A stretch of 64,000 nucleotides of DNA from assembly GCA_965116905.1 (NCBI GenBank), contig OZ220732.1, forward strand, positions 1,312,001 through 1,376,000, given 5' to 3'. Below, one piece after another: positions 49,757 through 61,960 of the stretch. The position numbers were made by a program, and so were the translations under genes. The notes beneath the pieces were generated by a model, which saw only the letters and a list, made by a program, of their open reading frames with translations, was not told where the DNA came from and did not search any database. Origin of the DNA: Longimicrobiales bacterium (GTDB taxonomy: Bacteria; Gemmatimonadota; Gemmatimonadetes; Longimicrobiales; Gaopeijiaceae). Position 1 is the stretch's first letter. Each line of letters begins with the position of its first letter.

Positions 49757-50329
49757 TCAGCCTTCCTCCGAGTCCATCGCGGCCCCGATCGCGCGGGCAT
49801 ACCAGTCGAGTGTCTCGATGAAGCCGGCAAAGGACTTTTCGTAGTGCGGCGCCGCGGGTTCGCCGTCTTCGCCGAAGCTGCCCGACACCCTGGAGACGTG
49901 CATTCCGGCCACCGGCAGGGCCTTGAGGCGGAGGAACAGGAGCTGCAGGTGGTTGTGCACCTGGACACCGCCAAAACCCCCCGCGGACACGGTCACGATT
50001 CCGACCGGCTTGCGGAACCACTCGCCGTAGATGTAGTCGAGCGCGTTCTTGAGAACGCCCGGGATGGAGCCGTTGTATTCGGGACTGACGACCACGACGG
50101 CGTCGGCGGCCCTCACCGCCTCCGAGAAGCGGACCAGCCCCGGCGGCGGGTCGTCCCGCATGTGCAGGCGCTCCTCCATGATCGGCAGGTCCAGGCTGCG
50201 AAGGTCCAGCAGCGGCGCGTCGGCCCCCGCCTGTCCGAGCCGGTCGCCGGCGAAGCGTGCCACCCTGATGGACTGGCGGCCGCGGCGTACCGAGCCCACG
50301 AGAACCGGGATGCGCAGCGGACGGTTCAC
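49757..50329 (-). CDS. NADPH-dependent FMN reductase
   Basis: GSVRRGRQS, SPEYNGSIPGVLKNALD, KPVGIV; GTGA overlap with ligase. Confidence 0.9.
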   Translation of the reverse strand: MNRPLRIPVLVGSVRRGRQSIRVARFAGDRLGQAGADAPLLDLRSLDLPIMEERLHMRDDPPPGLVRFSEAVRAADAVVVVSPEYNGSIPGVLKNALDYIYGEWFRKPVGIVTVSAGGFGGVQVHNHLQLLFLRLKALPVAGMHVSRVSGSFGEDGEPAAPHYEKSFAGFIETLDWYARAIGAAMDSEEG

Positions 50330-51918
50330 CGGGGACGGCCGGACGCGCCGGTCGTGGTCGGAGCACCCGAATCCCGGCCGGATGCGCGCACCTCCCGTTT
50401 CAGCGCTCCGCGGTCCACCTTGCCCAGGTGCGTGCGCGGCAGGTCGGCCAGGATATGGATCGCGCGCGGGTGCTTGTAGGACTCCAGCCGGGCGGCGACG
50501 TGGGCGCGGAGGCCGGCGACGTTTCCGCGGGGGTCGTCCTCGCGGGGCACAAGCACCACGAACGCCTCCGGAACCGTCAGTCCGTCTTCGGTCTCGATCC
50601 CCACCACCGCCGCCTCCTTTACACGCGGGTGTTGCAGCAGGCACTCCTCGGCCTCCCCGGGCGAAAACCACTTCCCCGAGACCTTGAGCAGGTCGTCGGC
50701 GCGTCCCTGGTAGCTGAAGCACCCGTCCTGGTCGCGCGTCATCATGTCGCCCGAAATGTACCACTCCCCGGCGAACGCGTGGCGCGTCGCTTCCGGGTGC
50801 TGCCAGTAGCCGTGCGCGAGGGACCCGCCCCGCACCCGCATCCGGCCGACTTCGCCGGTCTCCACCTCGTTGCCGTCGTCGTCGCAGAGCAGGACCTCGA
50901 ATCCGGGAACCGCGCGGCCGAGCGTCCCGGGCCGCACCTCGCCGGGCCGATTCGAGATGAAGACGTGCCACATCTCGGCCGTGCCGAGCCCATCGAGGAG
51001 TTCGACGCCGAAGGTGTCGTCCCAGCGGTGGTGCAGGGTGGGCGGCAGGGGTTCGCCGGCCGAGGTGGACAGCCGCAGACAGCTCAGGTCCCGGGCGTGC
51101 GCGTCCGGGTGGGCGACCATGTGATTCACCATGGTAGGGACGTTGACCAGGATCGTGGGGCGGTGGCGGGCGATCTGCGTGAACAGCTCGTCGGCGGTGC
51201 AGCGCTCCGGAAAGAGCACGGCCGAGGCGCCTGCGGCGAGGGGAAAAAAGAGGTTGGAGCCGGTGGCGTACCCGAAGTAGAGCTTGGGCACCGAGAGGGT
51301 GATGTCCTCGGGCGCGTAGCGGAGAACGCCCTTCGCGTAGCATTCGGTGGTGTTGGCAAACGACGCGTGGCTCTGGATCACGCCCTTGGGGCGACCGGTC
51401 GTGCCGCCCGAGAACAGCCAGATCGCGGGGTCGTCGAAATGTGAAGTAAAGTTGACATAATGTAAACTGGAGTTGTCAACAAGAGCATCGTCGTCGGGGG
51501 TGCCGAGGACGAGCAGACGGGGTGGATTGGGCGCGCCGCGCGCCGCCTCCAGGAAGGTCGCCGCGTGGTCCGAGTGGATTACGGCGGCTGTCGCGCGCGT
51601 GTAGTCGTACATGTCGCGGACTCGCGACGCGCCCAGGTAGCAGTTCACCATCACGCCGACCGCGCCCATCTTGAGCGCACCGAAGAGCGCGGCGGGGAAG
51701 TCCGGAACGTCGGGGAGACCCACGAGCACGCGGTCTCCGGGACGAACGCCGGCCGCTTCCAGGGCGTTGGCAAACTGGTTGGCGCGGGCCTGCAGCGCCG
51801 CGTAGCTGACGGTGCCGTCGCGTGTCCGCAGGGCGATCCGCTCACCGAGCCCCTCCCGGATCCGGTCGTCCAGGAAGTAGTCGGCGATGTTGAAGGGGTC
51901 GGGAGGGTCGAAGCGCAT
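50326..51918 (-). CDS. Benzoate/2-aminobenzoate-CoA ligase
   Basis: WLFSGGTTGRPKG, KLYFGYATG, SAGEPLP, DGLGTAE, SGD, GRADDLLKV, GKVDR; adjacent to abm-like operon. Confidence 0.85.
   Translation of the reverse strand: MRFDPPDPFNIADYFLDDRIREGLGERIALRTRDGTVSYAALQARANQFANALEAAGVRPGDRVLVGLPDVPDFPAALFGALKMGAVGVMVNCYLGASRVRDMYDYTRATAAVIHSDHAATFLEAARGAPNPPRLLVLGTPDDDALVDNSSLHYVNFTSHFDDPAIWLFSGGTTGRPKGVIQSHASFANTTECYAKGVLRYAPEDITLSVPKLYFGYATGSNLFFPLAAGASAVLFPERCTADELFTQIARHRPTILVNVPTMVNHMVAHPDAHARDLSCLRLSTSAGEPLPPTLHHRWDDTFGVELLDGLGTAEMWHVFISNRPGEVRPGTLGRAVPGFEVLLCDDDGNEVETGEVGRMRVRGGSLAHGYWQHPEATRHAFAGEWYISGDMMTRDQDGCFSYQGRADDLLKVSGKWFSPGEAEECLLQHPRVKEAAVVGIETEDGLTVPEAFVVLVPREDDPRGNVAGLRAHVAARLESYKHPRAIHILADLPRTHLGKVDRGALKREVRASGRDSGAPTTTGASGRPR
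51450..51480. other. AT-rich palindromic, dif-like element inside the CoA-ligase CDS
   Basis: AGTTGACATAATGTAAACTGGAGTTGTCAAC; minus strand reads ...TTTACA-TTATGTCAACT. Confidence 0.4.
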
Positions 51919-51979
51919 CGGTCAGACGGTTTGGGCGGTTGGGTGGCGATTATGTTTAGAGACGAAGGAGGGATCGTCA

Positions 51980-52966
51980 ATGGAGAACCACCTCTGGGGC
52001 CAGGCGACGTGGACGGAGCTGGCGCGTCTCGGTCTTGCCGTCCGTGAACGAGGCGGCCCGGACACCGAGAGCGGCGGCGCGGACGGGAGTGCCCACGCCC
52101 CACCCGGCTCCCGCGTCGTCGCGTTGCTCCCGACCGGCGCGGTCGAGGCCCACGGCCCCCATCTCCCGCTCACCACCGACGTCACGATCGCGAACGCCGC
52201 CGCGCAGGCCGCGCTGCCCGGTCTCCGGCGCCTGGGCCTCCATCCGGTCATTCTGCCCCCCCTGCCGTACACGGCCGCCCCTTTCGCGGCGGGCTTCCCG
52301 GGCACGATCTCGGTGCGTCCCGCGACCGTCACCGCGCTGCTGGCCGACGTGGCGGCCTCGCTGGAACGACAGGGTGCGGCCGCGCTCGTCGTCGTCAACG
52401 CGCACCTCGACCCGGCCCACCTGGACGCGATCCGGAAGGTGGTGCGCGGCGGGAACGCTGCGGGCGCGGCGGTGCCCTCGCGGCACCCGGGTGAGGCCCC
52501 CGCTCGGGACGCGGCTCCGGCTCGCGACGAGGCCCCCACGCGCGACGGGGCCCCCGCTCGCCACGAGGCCCCCACGCGCGACGAAGCCACCGCTCGCGAC
52601 CAGGGCTGGCCCATGCCCGTCATCCACCCCGACCTCACCGAGCGGCGCTGGGCCTCGCGCCTGACCGCGGAATTCAGGAGCGGGGCGTGTCATGCCGGGT
52701 CCTACGAGACCTCGGTGGTGATGGTCGCGGCCCCGGAGCTGGTTCGCGAGGACGAGCGGCGTGGATTGGCCAAAAACCCGGCCTCGCTGTCGGTCGCGAT
52801 CCGTGAGGGCGCGGCCACCTTCGAGGAGGCCGGGGTCACGGCGGCCTACTGCGGCGATCCCGCCGCGGCGACCCGGGAAGAGGGGGAGGAGACCCTGGAG
52901 GTGCTGGCGCGGATCGTGGTCGAAGCGGTGGAAGAGCGGCTGGGGCGAGAGACGAGGCCGGCATGA
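51980..52966 (+). CDS. Creatininase-family amidohydrolase
   Basis: AAGGAGG RBS; LLPTGAVEAHGPHLPLTTD, FPGTIS, VNAH, HAGSYETS. Confidence 0.9.
   Translation: MENHLWGQATWTELARLGLAVRERGGPDTESGGADGSAHAPPGSRVVALLPTGAVEAHGPHLPLTTDVTIANAAAQAALPGLRRLGLHPVILPPLPYTAAPFAAGFPGTISVRPATVTALLADVAASLERQGAAALVVVNAHLDPAHLDAIRKVVRGGNAAGAAVPSRHPGEAPARDAAPARDEAPTRDGAPARHEAPTRDEATARDQGWPMPVIHPDLTERRWASRLTAEFRSGACHAGSYETSVVMVAAPELVREDERRGLAKNPASLSVAIREGAATFEEAGVTAAYCGDPAAATREEGEETLEVLARIVVEAVEERLGRETRPA
52493..52600 (+). repeat. Six 18-bp in-frame tandem units encoding EAP(A/T)RD-like hexapeptides
   Basis: Seen directly inside the creatininase-family gene. Confidence 0.9.
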
Positions 52967-53799
52967 AGCGCGATGCGGGCAAGGCGATTGGCGCCACGGT
53001 GCGCGAGGCGCTGGACGATCGCCCCCGGGGCGCGCCGGATCTGGCTGGACGCGGCGCCGTCGTCACGGGCGGAGGGCGGGGGATCGGGCTGGCGGTTGCC
53101 CGGGCGCTGACCCGTGAAGGGGCGGCCGTGGTTGTCACTGCACGCACGGCGGCCGAGATCGAAGCCGTCGCGGAACGGTTGCGCGCGGAGGGCCGCACCG
53201 CGCACGCGGTGTCCTGCGACGTCACGGACCCCGACTCGGTGGCTGCGATGGCCGCCCGCGCCGGCGAGTTGCTGGGTGGCGTCGACATCCTGGTCAACAA
53301 CGCCGGGGTCGCGGCTTCCGCACCCTTCGGCAAGGTCACCGTGGAGCAGTGGGAGTGGGTGCATCGCGTGAACGCGACCGGTCCGCTTCTATGTACCCAG
53401 GCGTTCCTGCCCGCCATGGTGGAAGGGGGATGGGGCCGCATCGTCAACGTCGCGTCGGTCGCGAGCCTCGAGGGCGCGCGCTACATCACATCGTACGCCG
53501 CCTCGAAACACGCGCTGCTGGGAATGACGCGCTGTCTCGCGGCCGAACTGGCCGGAACCGGCGTCACGGCCAACTCCGTGTGCCCCAGCTACGTGGACAC
53601 GCCCATGACGGACGAGAACATCGCGCGGATCGCGGCGAAGACGGGGCGCGGCGCATCCGACATTCGGGCGGGCCTGGAAGACAGGCAGCCCGGGGGGCGG
53701 TTCATCACCGTCGAGGAGGTGGCGCACGCCGTGATGACGTTTATGCCCGACGGCGCGGCGTCGCTGCAGGGCAGTGAGCTGGTGGTCCGCGGCCGATGA
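52963..53799 (+). CDS. SDR (3-hydroxyacyl-CoA dehydrogenase-like, abm cluster)
   Basis: VTGGGRGIG, DILVNNAG, YAASK, CPSYVDTPM. Confidence 0.88.
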   Translation: MKRDAGKAIGATVREALDDRPRGAPDLAGRGAVVTGGGRGIGLAVARALTREGAAVVVTARTAAEIEAVAERLRAEGRTAHAVSCDVTDPDSVAAMAARAGELLGGVDILVNNAGVAASAPFGKVTVEQWEWVHRVNATGPLLCTQAFLPAMVEGGWGRIVNVASVASLEGARYITSYAASKHALLGMTRCLAAELAGTGVTANSVCPSYVDTPMTDENIARIAAKTGRGASDIRAGLEDRQPGGRFITVEEVAHAVMTFMPDGAASLQGSELVVRGR

Positions 53800-54323
53800 C
53801 CTTCGAGATCGTGAACCCGGCGGCGCTTGGCTCTCCGCGTGGCTGGAACAACGGGATGCTCGCGCCGGAGGGCGGCAGGGTGCTCTTCGTCGCCGGACAG
53901 ATCGGGGTGGCGGGCGAAGGGGAGAGACGCGATCCGGAGGGAGGCGGTCGCGACGGGGCCGGTCGGGAGGGGGCCGAATCGCGGGATCGAGAGGCCGGCG
54001 GCAGCCCGCTGGTGCGGCAGTTCGGCGCGGCGCTGGCCAACGTCCGGCGTGTGGTCGAGGCGACCGGGGGAGGGGTTGCCGACGTCGGGCGGCTCACCAT
54101 CTACGTGACCGACATGGATGCCTATCGCGGGTCTCTGCCCGAAATCGGGGCCGCGTACAGGGCGGTGTTCGGGAAGCACTTCCCGGCCATGGCGCTGGTG
54201 GCGGTCACCGAGCTGGTGGATCCGCGTGCGGTGGTGGAGGTCGAGGCCACGGCGGTAATCCCGCAGGCGCAATTGGGTGGGCACGCCGCCACCCGACCGC
54301 CCACCGTGAAGGAGAAGCCATGA
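53796..54323 (+). CDS. RidA/YjgF family enamine-imine deaminase
   Basis: PRGWNNG, LFVAGQIG, FGKHFPAMALVAV, VEVEATA. Confidence 0.88.
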   Translation: MTFEIVNPAALGSPRGWNNGMLAPEGGRVLFVAGQIGVAGEGERRDPEGGGRDGAGREGAESRDREAGGSPLVRQFGAALANVRRVVEATGGGVADVGRLTIYVTDMDAYRGSLPEIGAAYRAVFGKHFPAMALVAVTELVDPRAVVEVEATAVIPQAQLGGHAATRPPTVKEKP

Positions 54324-55141
54324 CCGACCTCAAATCCCCTCTCCTGGAGGCTCCGCGCTCGTTTCTCCTGGATTGGGACACCGAGACGAGCGTCGCGCGG
54401 ATCACGCTCAACCGGCCGGAGCGTCTGAACGCGCTGACCTTCGAGGTCTACGACGAGTTGCGGAACACGTTTCGGGCGCTGGACAGCGAGCCCGAGGTGC
54501 GCGCGGTCGTGATCACGGGTGCGGGGCGCGGGTTCTGTACGGGGGGGGATGTCGAGGACATCATTGGGCCGCTGTTCGAGCGGGACTTCGAGGGGCTGCT
54601 GGAGTTCACGCGCATGACCTGCGACCTGATTCTGGCGATGCGGCAGTGCCGTCAGCCGGTGATCGGGGCGCTGAACGGGACGGTGGCGGGTGCGGGCGCG
54701 GTGATTGCCACGGCTTGCGATGTGCGGATCGCGGCGGAGTCGGCCCGGATCGCGTATCTGTTTACACGGGTCGGGCTGTCGGGCGCGGACATGGGCGCGG
54801 CGTGGCTGCTGCCGCGGATCGTCGGTTTCGGGCGGGCGAGTGAGCTGCTCATGACCGGCGAGTTCGTCGATGCGGCCGAGGCCCACCGGATCGGGCTCTA
54901 CAACCGGGTGGTGCCCGACGGCGAGGTGCTCGATGCGGCGACGGCGTTCGCGGAGAAGCTGGCGCGCGGGCCGTCCTTTGCGCTGCGGATGACCAAGGAA
55001 GCGCTCAACCGGGAGGCGCACATGGAGCTGGAGCAGGCGCTCGAGGCCGAGGCGCGGGTGCAGGCGGCCTGCATGCTCAACCCGAACTTCCGCGAGGCAT
55101 ACGAGGCGTTCGTGGAGAAGCGGAAACCCCGTTTTGTTTGA
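54320..55141 (+). CDS. Enoyl-CoA hydratase family protein
   Basis: AAGGAG RBS; LNRPERLNAL, FCTGGD, AGAG, GADMGAAWLLPRIVG. Confidence 0.9.
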   Translation: MTDLKSPLLEAPRSFLLDWDTETSVARITLNRPERLNALTFEVYDELRNTFRALDSEPEVRAVVITGAGRGFCTGGDVEDIIGPLFERDFEGLLEFTRMTCDLILAMRQCRQPVIGALNGTVAGAGAVIATACDVRIAAESARIAYLFTRVGLSGADMGAAWLLPRIVGFGRASELLMTGEFVDAAEAHRIGLYNRVVPDGEVLDAATAFAEKLARGPSFALRMTKEALNREAHMELEQALEAEARVQAACMLNPNFREAYEAFVEKRKPRFV

Positions 55142-56291
55142 CGGCGGCGGACTGTCGCTGGAGCCGGTGGCGGCGTTCATCGAGCCGTCGCACCGGGAGT
55201 ACCGCGAGCGGGTCCTGTCGTTTTGCGAGGAGGAGATCGGGGACGGGCGCGATCCGGACACCGATGCGGCGGCGCGGGCGCGGGCGCGGGAGCTGGTGGA
55301 GCGGATGGGGGCGGCGGGGCTCTTCCGGCCGATTGCCGAGGGGGATGTGCGGGGCTGTCTGGTCGCGCGCGAGGTGCTGGCGTGGTGGTCGCCGCTCGCG
55401 GACACGGTCTTTGCGTTGCAGGGGCTGAGCGCGACCCCGGGCCTGATCCGGGACGTGGATCCCGGAGGGTGGGTGGAGCGCGCGGTGGCGGGCGAAGCAA
55501 TGGGTGCATTTGCCATGACCGAGTGGGCGGCGGGCTCCGATGTGGGGTCGATGACCACCGTGGCGGTGCCCGACGGGTCCGGGTTCAGGCTGAACGGCGG
55601 GAAGGCGTTCATTTCCAATGCCGGCATCGCGGATTTCTACGTCGTTTTCGCGTCGACCGACCCCGATGCGGGGACGTGGGGGATCTCGTGCTTCGTCGTG
55701 CCTGCCGACGCGGACGGGTTCGAGTTCACCGGGTCGCTGGTCATGAGCGCGCCGCATCCGCTGGGAGAGGTGAAGTTCAATGACTGTGTGGTGCCGGGCA
55801 GTGCCCTTCTGGGCGAGGTGGGCGGCGGATTCAAGATCGGCATGGCGACGCTCGACCGGCTGCGTCCCACGGTGGCGGCGGCAGCCTGCGGGATGGCGGG
55901 CAGGGCGCTTCGGGAGGCGGTGGACCACGCGCGCGGACGAGAACAGTTCGGGAAGCGCCTGGCTTCGTTCCAGCTGGTCCAGGAGAAGCTGTCCTCTTCG
56001 GCCATTGACCTGACCGCGGGGCGCCTGCTCGCCTACCGGGCCGGGTGGGAGAAGGACCGGGGGGCGGAACGGATCACGATGGAGGCCGCCATGGCGAAGG
56101 CCTTCTCGACCGAAGCTGCGCAGCGGATCGTGGACCGGGCGGTGCAGGTGTTGGGGGGGCGGGGCGTCCTGGCGGGTCATCCGGTCGACCATCTGTATCG
56201 GTGCGTGCGGGCGCTGAGGATCTACGAGGGGACGACCGAGATTCAGCACCTGATCATCGGGGGCGGGCTCGTGCGGGGTGATGCGGGGTGA
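55134..56291 (+). CDS. Acyl-CoA dehydrogenase
   Basis: [41 protein letters not shown]. Confidence 0.92.
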
Positions 56292-58693
56292 AGGTCAATG
56301 TGATCGGCGGTGGGCCCGGCGGACTTTTTGCCGCCCTGCTGCTCAAGAAGTCGGATCCGGCGCGAAGGATCGAGGTCTTCGAGCGCAACCGGCCGGATGA
56401 CACCTTCGGCTTCGGGGTTGTCTTCTCCGATGCGACGCTCGAGGAGGTGGCCGAGGCGGATCCGGCGACGTTCCGCGCGATCGAGGAGCGCTTCTATCAC
56501 TGGGACGACATCCACATCCACTACCAGGGTGAACTCCTGGAGTCGACGGGGCACGGGTTCGCGGGACTGTCGCGCCGCGAGCTTCTGCTGCTGCTCCAGC
56601 GGCGCTGCCGGGAGGTCGGGGTCGGGTTGCACTTCGAGACCGCAGTCGGCGATCCGCCGGCTGGGGGAGCGACCGGCGTGCCTCTGGCATCCCGTTTTCT
56701 CGACGCCGACGTCGTGATCGGTGCCGACGGACTCAACAGCGTGGTGCGGGAGCGGTTTGCGGAGGCGTTCGAGCCGGCTGTCGACCTGAGGCCGAACCGC
56801 TTCGTCTGGCTCGGTACGACGCGGCCCTTCCCGGCATTCACCTTCTACTTCCGCGAGGACGAGCACGGGCTCTGGCGCGTGCACGCGTACCAGTACGACG
56901 CTTCGGGGAAGTCGACGTTCATCGTGGAGGCTACCGAACGAACCTGGCGCCGGGCAGGCATGGATACGGCCAGCGAGCAGGAGACGGTGTGCTTTCTGAC
57001 GCGCCTGTTCGCGGAGGAACTCGACGGGCACCCGCTGATATGCAACCGCTCGGTTTGGCGGCGGTTCCCCACCGTAGTGAACGCGCGCTGGTCGGCCGAC
57101 AACGTGGTCCTGATCGGAGATGCGGCGCACACGGCGCACTTCTCGGTGGGATCGGGGACCCGGTTGGCGATGTTGGACGCGATTGCGCTCGCCGGGGCGA
57201 TGGAAGGGGTGGGCGGGACGGGGGGCAGGCCGGTGGGCGACGCCTCCGCGGGCACCCTCGCCGATGCCCTCGCCGCCTACGAGTCGGAGCGGCGTCGGCC
57301 CGTGGAGTCGCTGCAGCGGGCGGCGCAGGCGAGCCTGCAATGGTTCGAGGACACGGAGCGCTACTTCCGTCTCGAGCCGGTCCAGTTCGGTTTCTCGCTG
57401 CTTACGAGAAGTCTGCGGATCTCGCACGAAAACCTGCGGGAGCGCGACCCTGCGTTCGTGGATCGTGTGGACCGATGGGTGGCCCGGCAGGCGGAGGCGC
57501 AGGCCGGCGTGACCATTGCCGGGAACGAGGCGGCCCTGGGAATCGACCGAGCCCCCGGGGACCGCTCGCCTCCTCCTCCCCTTTTCACGCCGTTCCGCCT
57601 GCGCGACCTGGTGCTGGCCAACCGGGTGGGCGTGTCGGCGATGTGCCAGTACTCGGCCGACGACGGGACGGTCGACGACTGGCACCTCGTGAACCTCGGC
57701 TCGCGTGCGGTCGGCGGGGCGGGGCTCGTGATGGCCGAGATGACCGCGGTCGGGCGGGACGGCCGCATTTCGCCGGGTTGCGCGGGCATCTACGACGAGG
57801 GGCACGTGGTTGCGTGGCGCCGACTGGTCGAGTTTGTGAAACGTTTCACAAGCGCGCGCGTCGGCATCCAGCTCGGCCACGCGGGCCGCAAGGCTTCGAC
57901 GCGGCTGGATTGGGAGGGCCCGAACGAGCCGCTGGAAGAAGGCGGGTGGCCGATCGTGTCGGCCTCGCCGATCGGTTTTTTCGAACACAGCCCGGTGCCG
58001 GCGGAGTTGGACGAGGCGGGGATGGAGGCGCTGATCGCGGAATTCGAGCGCTCCACGGCAATGGCGGATGCGGCCGGCTTCGACATGGTCGAGATCCACA
58101 TGGCGCACGGCTACCTCCTCGCGAGCTTCCTGTCCCCCCTGACCAACGAGCGCACGGACCGCTACGGCGGCAGCCTCGAGAACCGGCTGCGCTTTCCGCT
58201 GCGTGTGGTCGACGCGGTGCGGTCGCTGTGGCCGGACGAGCGTCCGCTCTCGGTCCGTCTTTCCGCGGTGGACTGGTGGCCCGGCGGCAACGAGCCCGAA
58301 GACGCGGTGGATATCGCCCGCGCGCTGAATGCCCACGGCTGCGACATCGTGGACGTGTCGACGGGACAGACGGTGCCCTACCAGCAACCCAGGTACGGCC
58401 GCCAGTTCCAGACGCCCTTCGCCGACCGGATTCGGCACGAGGTCGGGATCGCGACCATGGCCGTGGGCAACATCTCGTCGTTCGAGGACGTCAACGGGAT
58501 CATCGCGGCGGGGCGCGCGGACCTCTGCCTCATGGCGCGCGCCCACCTGTGGGATCCATACTGGACAAGGCACGCCGCGTACGCGCTGGGGTATCCGCTG
58601 CCGTGGCCCCCCCAGTACGAGACGCTGAACAACTACACGCCGCGGTTCGGGTCGGCCGCCGGCGCGTACGGACCGGACACCGGAAATGAGTAA
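56288..58693 (+). CDS. abmA: Anthraniloyl-CoA monooxygenase/reductase (bifunctional flavoprotein + OYE-like domain)
   Basis: IGGGPGGL, DTFGFGVVFSD, GDAAHTAHFSVGSGT, MCQYSA, HMAHGYLL, ARAHLWDPYW. Confidence 0.9.
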   Translation: MKVNVIGGGPGGLFAALLLKKSDPARRIEVFERNRPDDTFGFGVVFSDATLEEVAEADPATFRAIEERFYHWDDIHIHYQGELLESTGHGFAGLSRRELLLLLQRRCREVGVGLHFETAVGDPPAGGATGVPLASRFLDADVVIGADGLNSVVRERFAEAFEPAVDLRPNRFVWLGTTRPFPAFTFYFREDEHGLWRVHAYQYDASGKSTFIVEATERTWRRAGMDTASEQETVCFLTRLFAEELDGHPLICNRSVWRRFPTVVNARWSADNVVLIGDAAHTAHFSVGSGTRLAMLDAIALAGAMEGVGGTGGRPVGDASAGTLADALAAYESERRRPVESLQRAAQASLQWFEDTERYFRLEPVQFGFSLLTRSLRISHENLRERDPAFVDRVDRWVARQAEAQAGVTIAGNEAALGIDRAPGDRSPPPPLFTPFRLRDLVLANRVGVSAMCQYSADDGTVDDWHLVNLGSRAVGGAGLVMAEMTAVGRDGRISPGCAGIYDEGHVVAWRRLVEFVKRFTSARVGIQLGHAGRKASTRLDWEGPNEPLEEGGWPIVSASPIGFFEHSPVPAELDEAGMEALIAEFERSTAMADAAGFDMVEIHMAHGYLLASFLSPLTNERTDRYGGSLENRLRFPLRVVDAVRSLWPDERPLSVRLSAVDWWPGGNEPEDAVDIARALNAHGCDIVDVSTGQTVPYQQPRYGRQFQTPFADRIRHEVGIATMAVGNISSFEDVNGIIAAGRADLCLMARAHLWDPYWTRHAAYALGYPLPWPPQYETLNNYTPRFGSAAGAYGPDTGNE

Positions 58694-59477
58694 CGGCGAC
58701 GAAACGATGAACTACCAGCGCTTCGCCATGCTTCCGGAGCTGCTTTCCCTCCAGCGGCCGCTGTCCGACCCGCCGGAGCACGACGAGATGCTCTTCATCA
58801 TCGTGCACCAGGTACACGAGCTCTGGTTCAAGGCGGCGCTTCACGAACTCGACCACGCACGGGAGCTGCTTGTGGGCGGCGATGAGGCCCGGGTGGCCGC
58901 GACCCTCAAGCGTGTGCGTTCCATCATGAAGGTGCTGGTGGGCCAGCTGGACATCCTGGAAACGATGACACCCGTCGAGTTCGAGTCCTTCCGCGATCGC
59001 CTCGACACGGCCAGCGGCTTCCAGTCGGCCCAGTTCCGGGAGCTGGAGTTCGCGCTGGGAATCAAGCGGGCGTCGGTGCTCAAGACGTTTCCCGATTCCG
59101 ACGAAAACCGGCGGCTGCAACAGAGACTCGAGGAGCCATCGCTCTGGGACGCCTTCCTGCGGTTCCTGGACGGCAGAGGGTACAGGGTCCCGGACGGGGC
59201 CCTGGCCCGCGACGTGACCGAACCCGTCACGCCCGACCCCGAGTTGCAGGGAGTGCTGGTCGATGCCTACCGCTCCGATCCGGGGCTGATCAACCTCTGC
59301 GAGCGCCTGGTCGATCTCGACGAGGGGTTCCAGGAGTGGCGCTACCGGCACATCAAGATGGTCGAGCGTACAATCGGCAACAAACCGGGAACGGGCGACA
59401 GCGCCGGGGTGGCCTACCTGGTGACCACGATGACCGCGGCGTTCCCGGACCTGTGGGAGATGAGGTCGGCGCTGTGA
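58686..59477 (+). CDS. kynA: Tryptophan 2,3-dioxygenase
   Basis: HDEMLFIIVHQVHELWFK, ASGFQSAQFR, WRYRH, VERTIGNKPGTG. Confidence 0.95.
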   Translation: MSNGDETMNYQRFAMLPELLSLQRPLSDPPEHDEMLFIIVHQVHELWFKAALHELDHARELLVGGDEARVAATLKRVRSIMKVLVGQLDILETMTPVEFESFRDRLDTASGFQSAQFRELEFALGIKRASVLKTFPDSDENRRLQQRLEEPSLWDAFLRFLDGRGYRVPDGALARDVTEPVTPDPELQGVLVDAYRSDPGLINLCERLVDLDEGFQEWRYRHIKMVERTIGNKPGTGDSAGVAYLVTTMTAAFPDLWEMRSAL

Positions 59478-59516
59478 CCGAGGGGGACACCGGGCCGCGC
59501 CCCGACGGGACAGACC

Positions 59517-60623
59517 CTAGCGCCGCGTCCAGATCACGATGAGCCCGCAGGATGATCCGGTTCCCCCGTACTTCACCGGGATCCCCGCCGTTCTCGTGTA
59601 GACCTCCACACCCGCAAGGGCGCTGCGCATAAGGAGGATGTCGAGCTCGGCGGGCAGGTCCGAGCCTCCTCCCACCATCATGTCATCGAGCACTACACGG
59701 GGGAAGCACCGCCGGTCGCGACCGGCGCTGAGCATGACATGCCGCCGGCCCGTGGGGCCCGCAACCAACGTGACGCCCGCCAGTCCCAGGAACAGGTCGC
59801 TCATGTTTCCGGGAGGTCGCTTCTCGATATCGTCGCGGTCGAGGAACTTCCCGAATCCGATGGCCTCGCGGCGGTAGAATCCCGCCTGCTCAAGCACGAT
59901 GTCGCGCCTCTCGACGCTCACCTCGATCGGATCCAGCTGCACGGGGTCGGCCGAGAGCAATACGCGGATGTTGCTCATCCTCCCGTACTCGACGCCGATC
60001 GAGTCGGCGCGCGTCGCGTACCCAAGGTGGGAGAACCGGACGAGGTGTTGGCCGGGATACAGCCTGGTGAAGGTGAAACGGCCCCGTCCATCCGTCTGCG
60101 TCGCCTGGGGTGCGGCCGCCGTCCACACGGTGGCTCCGGCCACCGGCCTGCCGTCGACGCCGTCCCTCACCACGCCGGTGATGCCCGTCATCAACCCGTC
60201 CTCCAGGTACTCGATGGGCTGCATGGCCGTGGCGAATTCGCCGCTGCCGAGGACCGTGAAGTCGTCCACAAAGGTCTGATAGCCCGGGTGGGAAAGCCCG
60301 AGCTTGTATGCGCCGATGGGGATCCGGGTGATCGTGAACCGTCCGTTGTCGTCGGACTCGAGCCGCACGTCCGCACCGTCGACCACGACGACGACGCCGG
60401 CCAGGGGCTCTCCGGTGACTGCATCCACGACGGTGCCCCTGACCGTGACCAGGGGACGGTCGCGCACCTCCTGGGCAGCACCGCCCGTCGCCCAGGCCAG
60501 TCCCGCCGCGCACACGAGAGGAGCCGCTGCCCTCAGGATCGGGCACCGTCGCTCGGCGCTCTGGGCCAGACGAGGGCGCCACCGGCGGTACGCTCGCGCG
60601 GGGAGTGTTGTGCCCGCAAACAT
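59517..60623 (-). CDS. Secreted protein with two carboxypeptidase-regulatory-like domains and a TonB plug-like C-terminus (no barrel)
   Basis: GTVVDAVTGEPLAG, GVVRDGVDGRPVAGA, GFYRR..GFGKFL, GVEVY, CGLIVIWTRR. Confidence 0.7.
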   Translation of the reverse strand: MFAGTTLPARAYRRWRPRLAQSAERRCPILRAAAPLVCAAGLAWATGGAAQEVRDRPLVTVRGTVVDAVTGEPLAGVVVVVDGADVRLESDDNGRFTITRIPIGAYKLGLSHPGYQTFVDDFTVLGSGEFATAMQPIEYLEDGLMTGITGVVRDGVDGRPVAGATVWTAAAPQATQTDGRGRFTFTRLYPGQHLVRFSHLGYATRADSIGVEYGRMSNIRVLLSADPVQLDPIEVSVERRDIVLEQAGFYRREAIGFGKFLDRDDIEKRPPGNMSDLFLGLAGVTLVAGPTGRRHVMLSAGRDRRCFPRVVLDDMMVGGGSDLPAELDILLMRSALAGVEVYTRTAGIPVKYGGTGSSCGLIVIWTRR

Positions 60624-60661
60624 GGTCAGTAGATACTTCAGCGAAGGAGGCAACGTTCCTG

Positions 60662-61960
60662 ATGAATACTACCACGGCCATGCTGGCTCGGCACTACGCC
60701 CGCTTCCGGGTGTCCGAGCGTGTGCTGCTCACCGGGCACTCCCACCAGGCGTGGCCGGATGTGGCGTTTTCCGCCCAGAAGCAGGCGTGGCTGGATGCCG
60801 CGGAACTCGTCGACGACAAGTGGGGACGCGCCTTCGAGGCGGCCGACGAGGTGCGGGCCGGCTTCCGACGGCTTCTGGACGACCCGGACGGCCACATCGC
60901 GCTGGGGCAGAATACGCACGAGCTGCTGATCCGGTTCCTGTCGGCGCTGCCGCTGCGGGAACGGCCGCGCCTGGTCACGACCGACGGCGAATTCCACACG
61001 ATCCGGCGCCAGCTCGACCGCCTGGAGGCAGAGGGGATCGAGATCGTGCGGGTGACGACGGGAACGGGTCACGGGGCGGGTGGAGCCGGCGCGAGTGGAG
61101 ACGGCGCGAGTGGACACGGCGCGGTAGCCGAGGGAATCGTGGACGCCGTGGACGACCGCACCGCCGCCGTGCTGGTATCGTCGGTGCTGTTCCGGGACGC
61201 GCGAATCGTGGAGGGGCTGGACGAGGTGGCCGCGGCATGCGCCCGCGTCGGCGCCGAGCTGCTGGTCGACGCCTACCACTCGCTCAACGCAGTGCCGTTT
61301 TCGGTCGCCGAGCTGGGGCTGGAGGGCGCGTTCGTGGTGGGCGGCGGGTACAAGTACTGCCAGCTGGGCGAAGGGAACTGCTTCCTCAGATTCCCGCGGG
61401 ACTGCGCGTTGCGGCCCGTGCTGACGGGCTGGTTCGCGGAGTTCGGGACGCTGGCCGACGAGCCTGGAGGGGGCGGCAAGCCGACCGATGGCGGCGTTGC
61501 ATATGGAGAAGGCCACCTGCGGTTCGCGGGGTCCACCTACGACCCGGTCAGCCACTACCGGGCGGCGGCGGTTTTCGGCTTCTTCCGGGAGCACGAGCTG
61601 AATGTGGAGCGGCTGCGCGAGATCGGACTGAGCCAGATCCGGCGACTGGCCGCGAGCGTGGACGCGCTGGACGCGGATCCGGCCGTGCTCAAGCGGGATC
61701 GCACCGTGCGGTTGTCACGCCGCGCCGGCTTTCTGACCATGGAAGCGCCCCGCGCCGGTGAGATCTGTTGCAAGCTGCGCGGACTCGGGGTCTACGCGGA
61801 TTTCCGGGGCCGCGTGCTTCGCCTGGGGCCCGCGCCGTACGTGACCGGGGAGCAGCTGGATGAGGGGGTCGCCGCGCTGGGGGAGGTGGTGGACCAGCTG
61901 GTCACCACGACCGCCTCATCGACCAGCCGGCCCCAGGCGTCATATCCCGTCAAGGATTGA
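60662..61960 (+). CDS. kynU: Kynureninase (divergent type)
   Basis: AAGGAGG RBS; LTGHSHQAWP, DAYH, GGGYKY, RPVLTGWF, DFRG..LRLGPAPY; clustered with kynA. Confidence 0.8.
   Translation: MNTTTAMLARHYARFRVSERVLLTGHSHQAWPDVAFSAQKQAWLDAAELVDDKWGRAFEAADEVRAGFRRLLDDPDGHIALGQNTHELLIRFLSALPLRERPRLVTTDGEFHTIRRQLDRLEAEGIEIVRVTTGTGHGAGGAGASGDGASGHGAVAEGIVDAVDDRTAAVLVSSVLFRDARIVEGLDEVAAACARVGAELLVDAYHSLNAVPFSVAELGLEGAFVVGGGYKYCQLGEGNCFLRFPRDCALRPVLTGWFAEFGTLADEPGGGGKPTDGGVAYGEGHLRFAGSTYDPVSHYRAAAVFGFFREHELNVERLREIGLSQIRRLAASVDALDADPAVLKRDRTVRLSRRAGFLTMEAPRAGEICCKLRGLGVYADFRGRVLRLGPAPYVTGEQLDEGVAALGEVVDQLVTTTASSTSRPQASYPVKD

Follow-up and report, generated by a model that had tools for sequence, protein, structure and literature searches.

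The window analysed here, a stretch of 64,000 nucleotides from the genome of a Longimicrobiales bacterium (Gemmatimonadota; contig OZ220732.1; closed, 4.2 Mb, 97% complete), carries a gene cluster for the conversion of tryptophan to anthraniloyl-coenzyme A (anthraniloyl-CoA). The cluster is real and conserved, a known pathway in a new form, and one of its enzymes is uncharacterised. This enzyme, designated here as CRE, is a creatininase-family protein and is considered below as a candidate replacement for the kynurenine formamidase KynB. Tryptophan 2,3-dioxygenase (TDO; kynA gene product) converts tryptophan to N-formylkynurenine, which is normally deformylated before KynU acts.

The sequence-only reading had listed kynA, kynU, an aryl-CoA ligase, abmA, a short-chain dehydrogenase (SDR), RidA, a hydratase and an acyl-CoA dehydrogenase, and all of them were found at their places (Table 1). 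Its assignment to the Azoarcus-type 2-aminobenzoyl-CoA (abm) pathway holds as well, since abmA, ligase, SDR, hydratase, acyl-CoA dehydrogenase and RidA form the complete set that the Azoarcus evansii abm cluster reportedly contains, with the SDR presumably AbmB-like and the RidA protein presumably AbmE-like. The abmA product falls 10 bits short of its cut-off, and the ligase and the hydratase represent a second subtype, named here type B. Start and stop codons overlap throughout the series from CRE through SDR, RidA, hydratase, dehydrogenase and abmA to kynA, and for this reason the seven genes are read as one operon with CRE in first place, as had been proposed, while the ligase gene is divergent from it. 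The kynA gene is present in a single copy in the host genome and, unlike in most other loci, is not directly followed by kynU.

Table 1. Features of the cluster in the window, followed by genes in the place of abmA at other loci
Feature	Position	Strand	Remark
NADPH-dependent FMN reductase	49757-50326		directly after ligase gene
Type B aryl-CoA ligase of the benzoate-CoA ligase family	50326..51918	-	TIGR02262, 461 bits, above cut-off
CRE, creatininase-fold metallo-amidohydrolase, proposed deformylase	51980..52966	+	PF02633, 166 bits (cut-off 31)
In-frame 18-bp tandem repeat, 6.2 copies, loop insertion within CRE	52493..52604	+	
Short-chain dehydrogenase	52963..53799	+	family scans
RidA/Rid-family protein	53796..54323	+	PF01042
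Enoyl-CoA hydratase PRK08258, type B	54320..55141	+	NF006107, 387 bits, above cut-off
Acyl-CoA dehydrogenase	55134..56291	+	family scans
AbmA-type 2-aminobenzoyl-CoA monooxygenase/reductase (PRK08255)	56288..58693	+	NF006101, 1068 bits, cut-off 1078
Tryptophan 2,3-dioxygenase kynA (PF03301)	58686..59477	+	family scans
Inserted gene with CarboxypepD_reg domains, outside pathway	59517..60653	-	separates kynA from kynU
Divergent kynureninase kynU	60662..61960	+	best profile and fold match 1QZ9
PaaA/PaaC-family and old-yellow-enzyme genes in the place of abmA	L193:5359-7234, L198:5458-7330, L178:8875-9585		

Outside close relatives the FMN reductase gene is not kept beside the ligase (it is there in 10 of 80 loci), and a promoter scan was uninformative.

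Neither the listing of open reading frames nor the family scans revealed a cyclase or formamidase gene in the cluster, which agrees with the earlier claim that KynB is missing there. The search of the whole host genome, which the same reading had suggested, yielded a single cyclase-family gene 2.5 Mb from the cluster; its product reaches 36.6 bits on the KynB model TIGR03035 (cut-off 223) and its N-terminus, judged by eye, resembles a lipoprotein signal, and on these two grounds it was rejected as a KynB orthologue. The KynB of another abm genome (G160), used as a tblastn query, found no match in the host genome at E<=1e-25. A motif scan for AFMID-type hydrolases in the same genome found no motif pair, other hydrolase families not being searched, and all 18 PF20434 matches lie within open frames of 677-1096 amino acids, so that an AFMID-type formamidase was likewise rejected.

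Family, fold and metal site of CRE

CRE matches PF02633 only, with no match to PF04199 or to TIGR03035 (KynB/cyclase), and stays below the curated cut-offs of the characterised relatives, namely creatininase (TIGR04448, 72 of 235 bits), MftE (TIGR03964, 97 of 172 bits) and IolN (NF041098, 25 of 245 bits). The protein of the window scores in two pieces because of its loop insertion, and none of the 27 further sequences in alignment A1 has the 18-bp repeat loop; the length of this loop differs widely between close relatives. The predicted model of a close, insertion-free relative (P0034) has a predicted local distance difference test score of 95 and the creatininase fold, and all listed Foldseek matches of this model at E<=0.001 are creatininases.

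Alignment to creatininase places E56, H58, D67, H142 and E243 of CRE at the positions of the two-metal ligands, which are E34, H36, D45, H120 and E183 in creatininase numbering; D144 and H238 are added to this set. Across 62 diverse CRE members (alignment A2) conservation of the metal ligands reaches 95-98%. An Arg-rich segment precedes the HAG motif, the His of which is invariant, and the position of creatininase E122, a residue known from the E122Q variant named in the PDB titles of the structure matches, holds D or E in 95% of members.

In the host genome the CRE subfamily profile gives 306 bits for CRE and at most 99 for the rest of the eight PF02633 matches, so that CRE is the sole subfamily member there. 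Other creatininase-family genes of the host cluster at G000:C1:675659-679082 and 3912997-3918034; one frame among them has two domains, and one gene is situated about 3 kb away from that of the cyclase. In whole-genome searches the scores of CRE members and of other creatininases are far apart: retained members have A2 E-values of 1e-69 or better with a gap below, and the matches in G058 and in 4 Myxococcota and 14 Acidobacteriota genomes, which have values of 1e-47 or weaker, were left out. A profile search of 1.84 billion representatives clustered at 50% identity returned 187 clusters at E<=1e-30, a count that takes in some non-members of the subfamily. The ESM Atlas offered generic creatininase clusters only, no relatives were found in viral contigs and plasmids, and a quick tree of CRE was largely unresolved and left unused. 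CRE represents a distinct creatininase-fold subfamily with an intact two-metal site.

Distribution of CRE, KynB and the partner enzymes

Two genome sets were compared, one of 181 Gemmatimonadota (57 with CRE after one weak row was dropped, 107 with kynA, 74 with the abm hydratase) and one of 221 Myxococcota, taken as the phylum of a Polyangiaceae genome (25 with CRE, 64 with a KynB-like gene). Together with 26 Acidobacteriota the CRE carriers amount to 108 genomes of three phyla, 57 in Gemmatimonadota and 51 in the other two, and kynA is present in 102 of them (55/57 and 47/51, respectively). Among kynA-positive Gemmatimonadota 18 of 52 non-carriers, the unpublished genome G189 among them, have a KynB-like gene within about 2 kb of kynA, and none of the 55 carriers does. 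KynB-like matches anywhere in these genomes were counted in 0/55 carriers and 24/52 non-carriers at E<1e-50, and in 8/55 and 32/52, respectively, at E<1e-28; within the single Gemmatimonadota family f4 the counts at E<1e-50 are 0/37 and 7/14. In Myxococcota KynB-like genes are found in 0/25 carriers versus 64/196 non-carriers. Thus the mutual exclusion of CRE and kynA-linked KynB holds in two phyla, although the p-values (2e-4 and smaller) overstate it because kin are not independent. Five abm clusters with kynA and KynB, in G160 (L123) and at four Myxococcota loci (L203-L206), are all without CRE, and no KynB was found in 200 CRE loci. The sequence-only reading had named a genuine kynB elsewhere, together with a lack of conserved linkage to kyn genes, as evidence against its proposal; what was found is a genome with no genuine kynB and a linkage of the CRE cluster conserved in at least five phyla.

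The 200 loci (80 from GTDB, 21 from Myxococcota, 19 from Acidobacteriota and 80 metagenome contigs, with at least two loci occurring in two subsets and many loci short) show that the direct neighbour of CRE is the ligase in 127 cases and kynA in 6. None of the 21 loci from Myxococcota has kynA inside the 10 kb that were fetched, and in 16 of them the ligase adjoins CRE. The operon is split in this phylum: the ligase-CRE pair is preserved, and the hydratase block, abmA, kynA and kynU are found at other places in the genome. The abm hydratase is present in 103 of 108 CRE carriers, so that CRE, unlike KynB, hardly ever accompanies kynA and kynU where the abm module is lacking; KynB-like genes without the abm hydratase number 41/65 in Gemmatimonadota and 60/64 in Myxococcota. 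Where the abm module is lost CRE is lost too, while kynA and the divergent kynU stay (closed genomes G106, G174 and G193), and in G106 and G193 there is no cyclase at all. Stepwise decay of the cluster is seen among close relatives (L143, L144, L049 and L051), the states being kynA-kynU with a hydratase remnant, kynA and SDR only, and ligase and CRE only.

Of 13 long CRE proteins 10 were read for fusions. A clean CRE-KynU fusion (P0206) is known from a single contig, and apparently clean fusions also join CRE to SDR (P0124) and RidA (P0125). Fusions to the ligase (six), to abmA (one) and to the SDR (one) contain garbled stretches and were counted as frameshift artefacts, which show no more than adjacency.

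The partner enzymes of CRE are altered as well. The hydratase PRK08258 falls into two score classes in Gemmatimonadota, type A in 20 genomes (1 with CRE) and type B in 54 genomes (54 with CRE), and in Myxococcota 24 of 26 genomes with the type B hydratase have CRE. The nearest structures of the window ligase are benzoate-CoA ligases, and its Gly216 takes the position of BadA Ala227; the motif at this site has Gly in 98/98 ligases read from CRE loci and Thr both in 16/16 CRE-free abm clusters and in AuaEII. According to one study, the BadA A227G substitution relieves a steric clash and raises the activity on ortho-substituted benzoates (PMC10803450).

The window kynureninase has no NCBIfam match, TIGR01814 included, and its Pfam KYNU_C score is under the cut-off. 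Profile A3, built from 30 orthologues, has the P. fluorescens kynureninase 1QZ9 as its best match (E 1e-19, 23% identity), and the same structure ranks first in a fold search with the predicted model (template modelling (TM) score 0.81). KynU proteins encoded beside KynB have the canonical GNSLG motif at 5/5 loci, while those of CRE loci, the window included, nearly always have His at the Asn of this motif and fall into two separate clades; the KynU tree is unrooted and convergence of the His is not claimed. The 5/5 Myxococcota carriers tested all have the His-type KynU, also where it is not linked, and one of these KynU genes is split; TIGR01814 missed KynU in four of the five, and profile A3 recovered it. 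A large kynureninase clade, to which 60662-61960 of the window belongs, is thereby flagged as undetected by TIGR01814, and because of this omission genomes with the divergent clade would be annotated as lacking kynU. The host has also a second kynureninase-like pyridoxal phosphate enzyme off the cluster (G000:C1:360926-362023), at 43% to the other divergent clade.

Several variants of the downstream genes were also observed. A gene resembling that of glutaryl-CoA dehydrogenase, labelled by this resemblance, is found in both Myxococcota cluster types (L172:8316-9494; L203-L206) and sometimes accompanies the ligase-CRE pair, hinting at a lower abm pathway that ends in glutaryl-CoA. Some Acidobacteriota clusters hold a PaaA/PaaC-family gene and a stand-alone old-yellow-enzyme reductase in the place of abmA, and in G478 the AbmA monooxygenase domain is absent; the PaaA/PaaC-type gene may represent a di-iron route for the dearomatisation of anthraniloyl-CoA.

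The step proposed for CRE

CRE and KynB exclude each other, CRE depends on kynA and its metal site is intact. Together these observations argue for formyl removal, which CRE, and not KynB, probably performs on the way from tryptophan to anthraniloyl-CoA, at whichever step. This chemistry would be available to the creatininase fold, since BrbF, a creatininase homologue of riboflavin synthesis, is reported as an N-formyl-aminopyrimidine formamidase (PMC9478397). The deformylase role is well supported by context, while the exact substrate is less settled.

Its linkage to the ligase, the way in which it is lost and its altered partner enzymes make a step after kynureninase the simplest choice for CRE, which could well deformylate N-formylanthranilate or its CoA ester at that point. 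Between the two substrates, N-formylanthraniloyl-CoA is put forward tentatively, and free N-formylanthranilate is rather unlikely. In such an order TDO would yield N-formylkynurenine, the divergent kynureninase would split it directly into alanine and N-formylanthranilate, the partner ligase with its presumably widened ortho pocket would activate N-formylanthranilate, and hydrolysis of the aryl formamide by CRE would release formate and provide anthraniloyl-CoA for AbmA. The kynureninase cleavage of N-formylkynurenine to formylanthranilate is mentioned as a recognised alternative step, with reference to KEGG, in PMC12019516. As a complete formyl-protected route, with deformylation of N-formylanthraniloyl-CoA ahead of AbmA, the scheme is a tentative proposal; if true, such a route spans many uncultured phyla and comprises three new enzyme specificities, and it would leave no free kynurenine or anthranilate, so that degradation is held apart from tryptophan biosynthesis. 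That the benefit of late deformylation is this keeping of catabolic anthranilate from tryptophan synthesis is speculation, and if the order is true it would be a new way of achieving it.

The sequence-only reading had placed CRE between TDO and KynU as a non-orthologous N-formylkynurenine formamidase. The deformylation in this proposal is supported by the two-phylum exclusion, the swap in sister clusters, the KynU fusion and the metal site, while N-formylkynurenine as the substrate is less favoured because CRE is tied to the ligase and the abm module and is lost with the module, not with kynA. It is a possible but doubtful assignment, consistent with the whole KynB exclusion pattern, with the P0206 fusion, with kynA adjacency in five Acidobacteriota genomes and at L053, and with the pairing of CRE and a canonical KynU in G346. 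Such an enzyme would be expected to occur without the abm module, as KynB mostly does, yet CRE hardly ever does (103/108 with the hydratase); ligase adjacency (127/200) by far exceeds that of kynA (6/200), CRE disappears with the module from G106, G174 and G193 while kynA and kynU persist, and neither an altered ligase nor an altered KynU would be needed.

The alternative of that reading, action on a downstream intermediate, can be specified as a ring-opening or deaminating hydrolase after AbmA, acting on 2-amino-5-oxocyclohexenecarbonyl-CoA or a diketo product and specific to type B clusters. The presence of CRE in 54/54 Gemmatimonadota and 24/26 Myxococcota genomes with the type B hydratase, the common order abmA-CRE-ligase with abmA adjoining CRE in 31/80 metagenome loci, the apparently clean fusions to SDR and RidA, and the family membership of IolN, a diketo-inositol hydrolase that opens its ring, are in keeping with this role. 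It is nevertheless weakened, and now appears unlikely, because type A clusters carry equal downstream types (SDR, RidA, hydratase and dehydrogenase) without CRE; no gene common to all type A clusters replaces the step, a thioesterase being found in 5/20, the KynB exclusion is left unexplained, and the SDR-RidA-hydratase genes of Myxococcota lie apart from the ligase-CRE pair. Highly unlikely is some other role, such as release of anthranilate from another N-acyl compound or amide or metabolite repair, with deformylation spontaneous or due to an unrelated enzyme: the seven further PF02633 matches and the exported-looking cyclase of the host, and the 20 kynA-positive genomes with neither CRE nor a KynB-like gene, would agree with it, but the near-universal co-occurrence with kynA and the linkage across phyla do not.

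A number of points weigh against deformylation after kynureninase or against the replacement of KynB as such. The whole case for the function of CRE is guilt by association, and CRE, the type B ligase, the type B hydratase and the divergent KynU are inherited together in related genomes that are not independent, so that profiles cannot separate the pathway steps. The ligase Gly may just suit the amino group, because ordinary benzoate-CoA ligases already take anthranilate, as stated in PMC8388817. What the motif residue does in KynU is inferred, and KynU of G425 has the Asn. CRE adjoins kynA in the Acidobacteriota genomes G440, G478, G494, G518 and G554, where the type B ligase is elsewhere in 4/4 searched and within the cluster in the fifth, and G346 combines CRE with canonical KynU and type A abm genes, no ligase having been found. 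Weaker cyclase matches (E<1e-28 to 1e-30) occur in 9/57 Gemmatimonadota and 14/26 Acidobacteriota carriers; of these 23 cases 15 were examined, with none beside kynA and 14 outside the clade of kynA-linked KynB. Finally, a KynB-like gene is missing, along with CRE, from 20 of the 52 kynA-positive Gemmatimonadota non-carriers, and therefore the route may work without a formamidase or with one of a third kind. These genomes are those of L145-L148 and 16 others.

Comparison with known systems

In the open full-text literature no link of the creatininase family to kynurenine or anthraniloyl-CoA metabolism was found, most subscription papers being outside the scope of this search. If the proposed role is true, a creatininase subfamily that is widespread and unannotated gains a function, the formamidases gain a third fold, and KynB-free tryptophan degradation in Gemmatimonadota, Myxococcota, Acidobacteriota and others is explained.

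KynB (TIGR03035, EC 3.5.1.9) is a probable functional counterpart, since CRE likely fills the same gap between tryptophan and anthranilate by metal-dependent hydrolysis of an aryl formamide and holds the equivalent place in sister clusters. The folds of the two are unrelated, the linkage of CRE is to the CoA ligase and the abm genes, not to kynA, and its substrate may differ, being N-formylanthranilate or its CoA ester. ArfB, a creatininase-family member, catalyses the same reaction as BrbF; both would resemble CRE in formamide hydrolysis, by description only, and differ in pathway and gene context, which for CRE is that of tryptophan and abm genes (no riboflavin genes were seen beside CRE, though they were not looked for). 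Pseudomonas putida creatininase (1J2T), MftE and IolN are similar to CRE in fold (TM ~0.70) and in the positions of the metal ligands, while CRE, at about 22% identity, differs by its own motifs, D or E at the E122 position and the Arg-rich segment.

The Azoarcus 2-aminobenzoyl-CoA pathway consists, according to PMC4539516, of a ligase, a monooxygenase/reductase and beta-oxidation enzymes, and the window cluster is like that of Azoarcus evansii in all three. The type found in the window differs by a benzoate-ligase-like ligase with the pocket Gly and by a divergent hydratase and KynU; it has CRE in addition, lacks KynB and usually has kynA and kynU attached.

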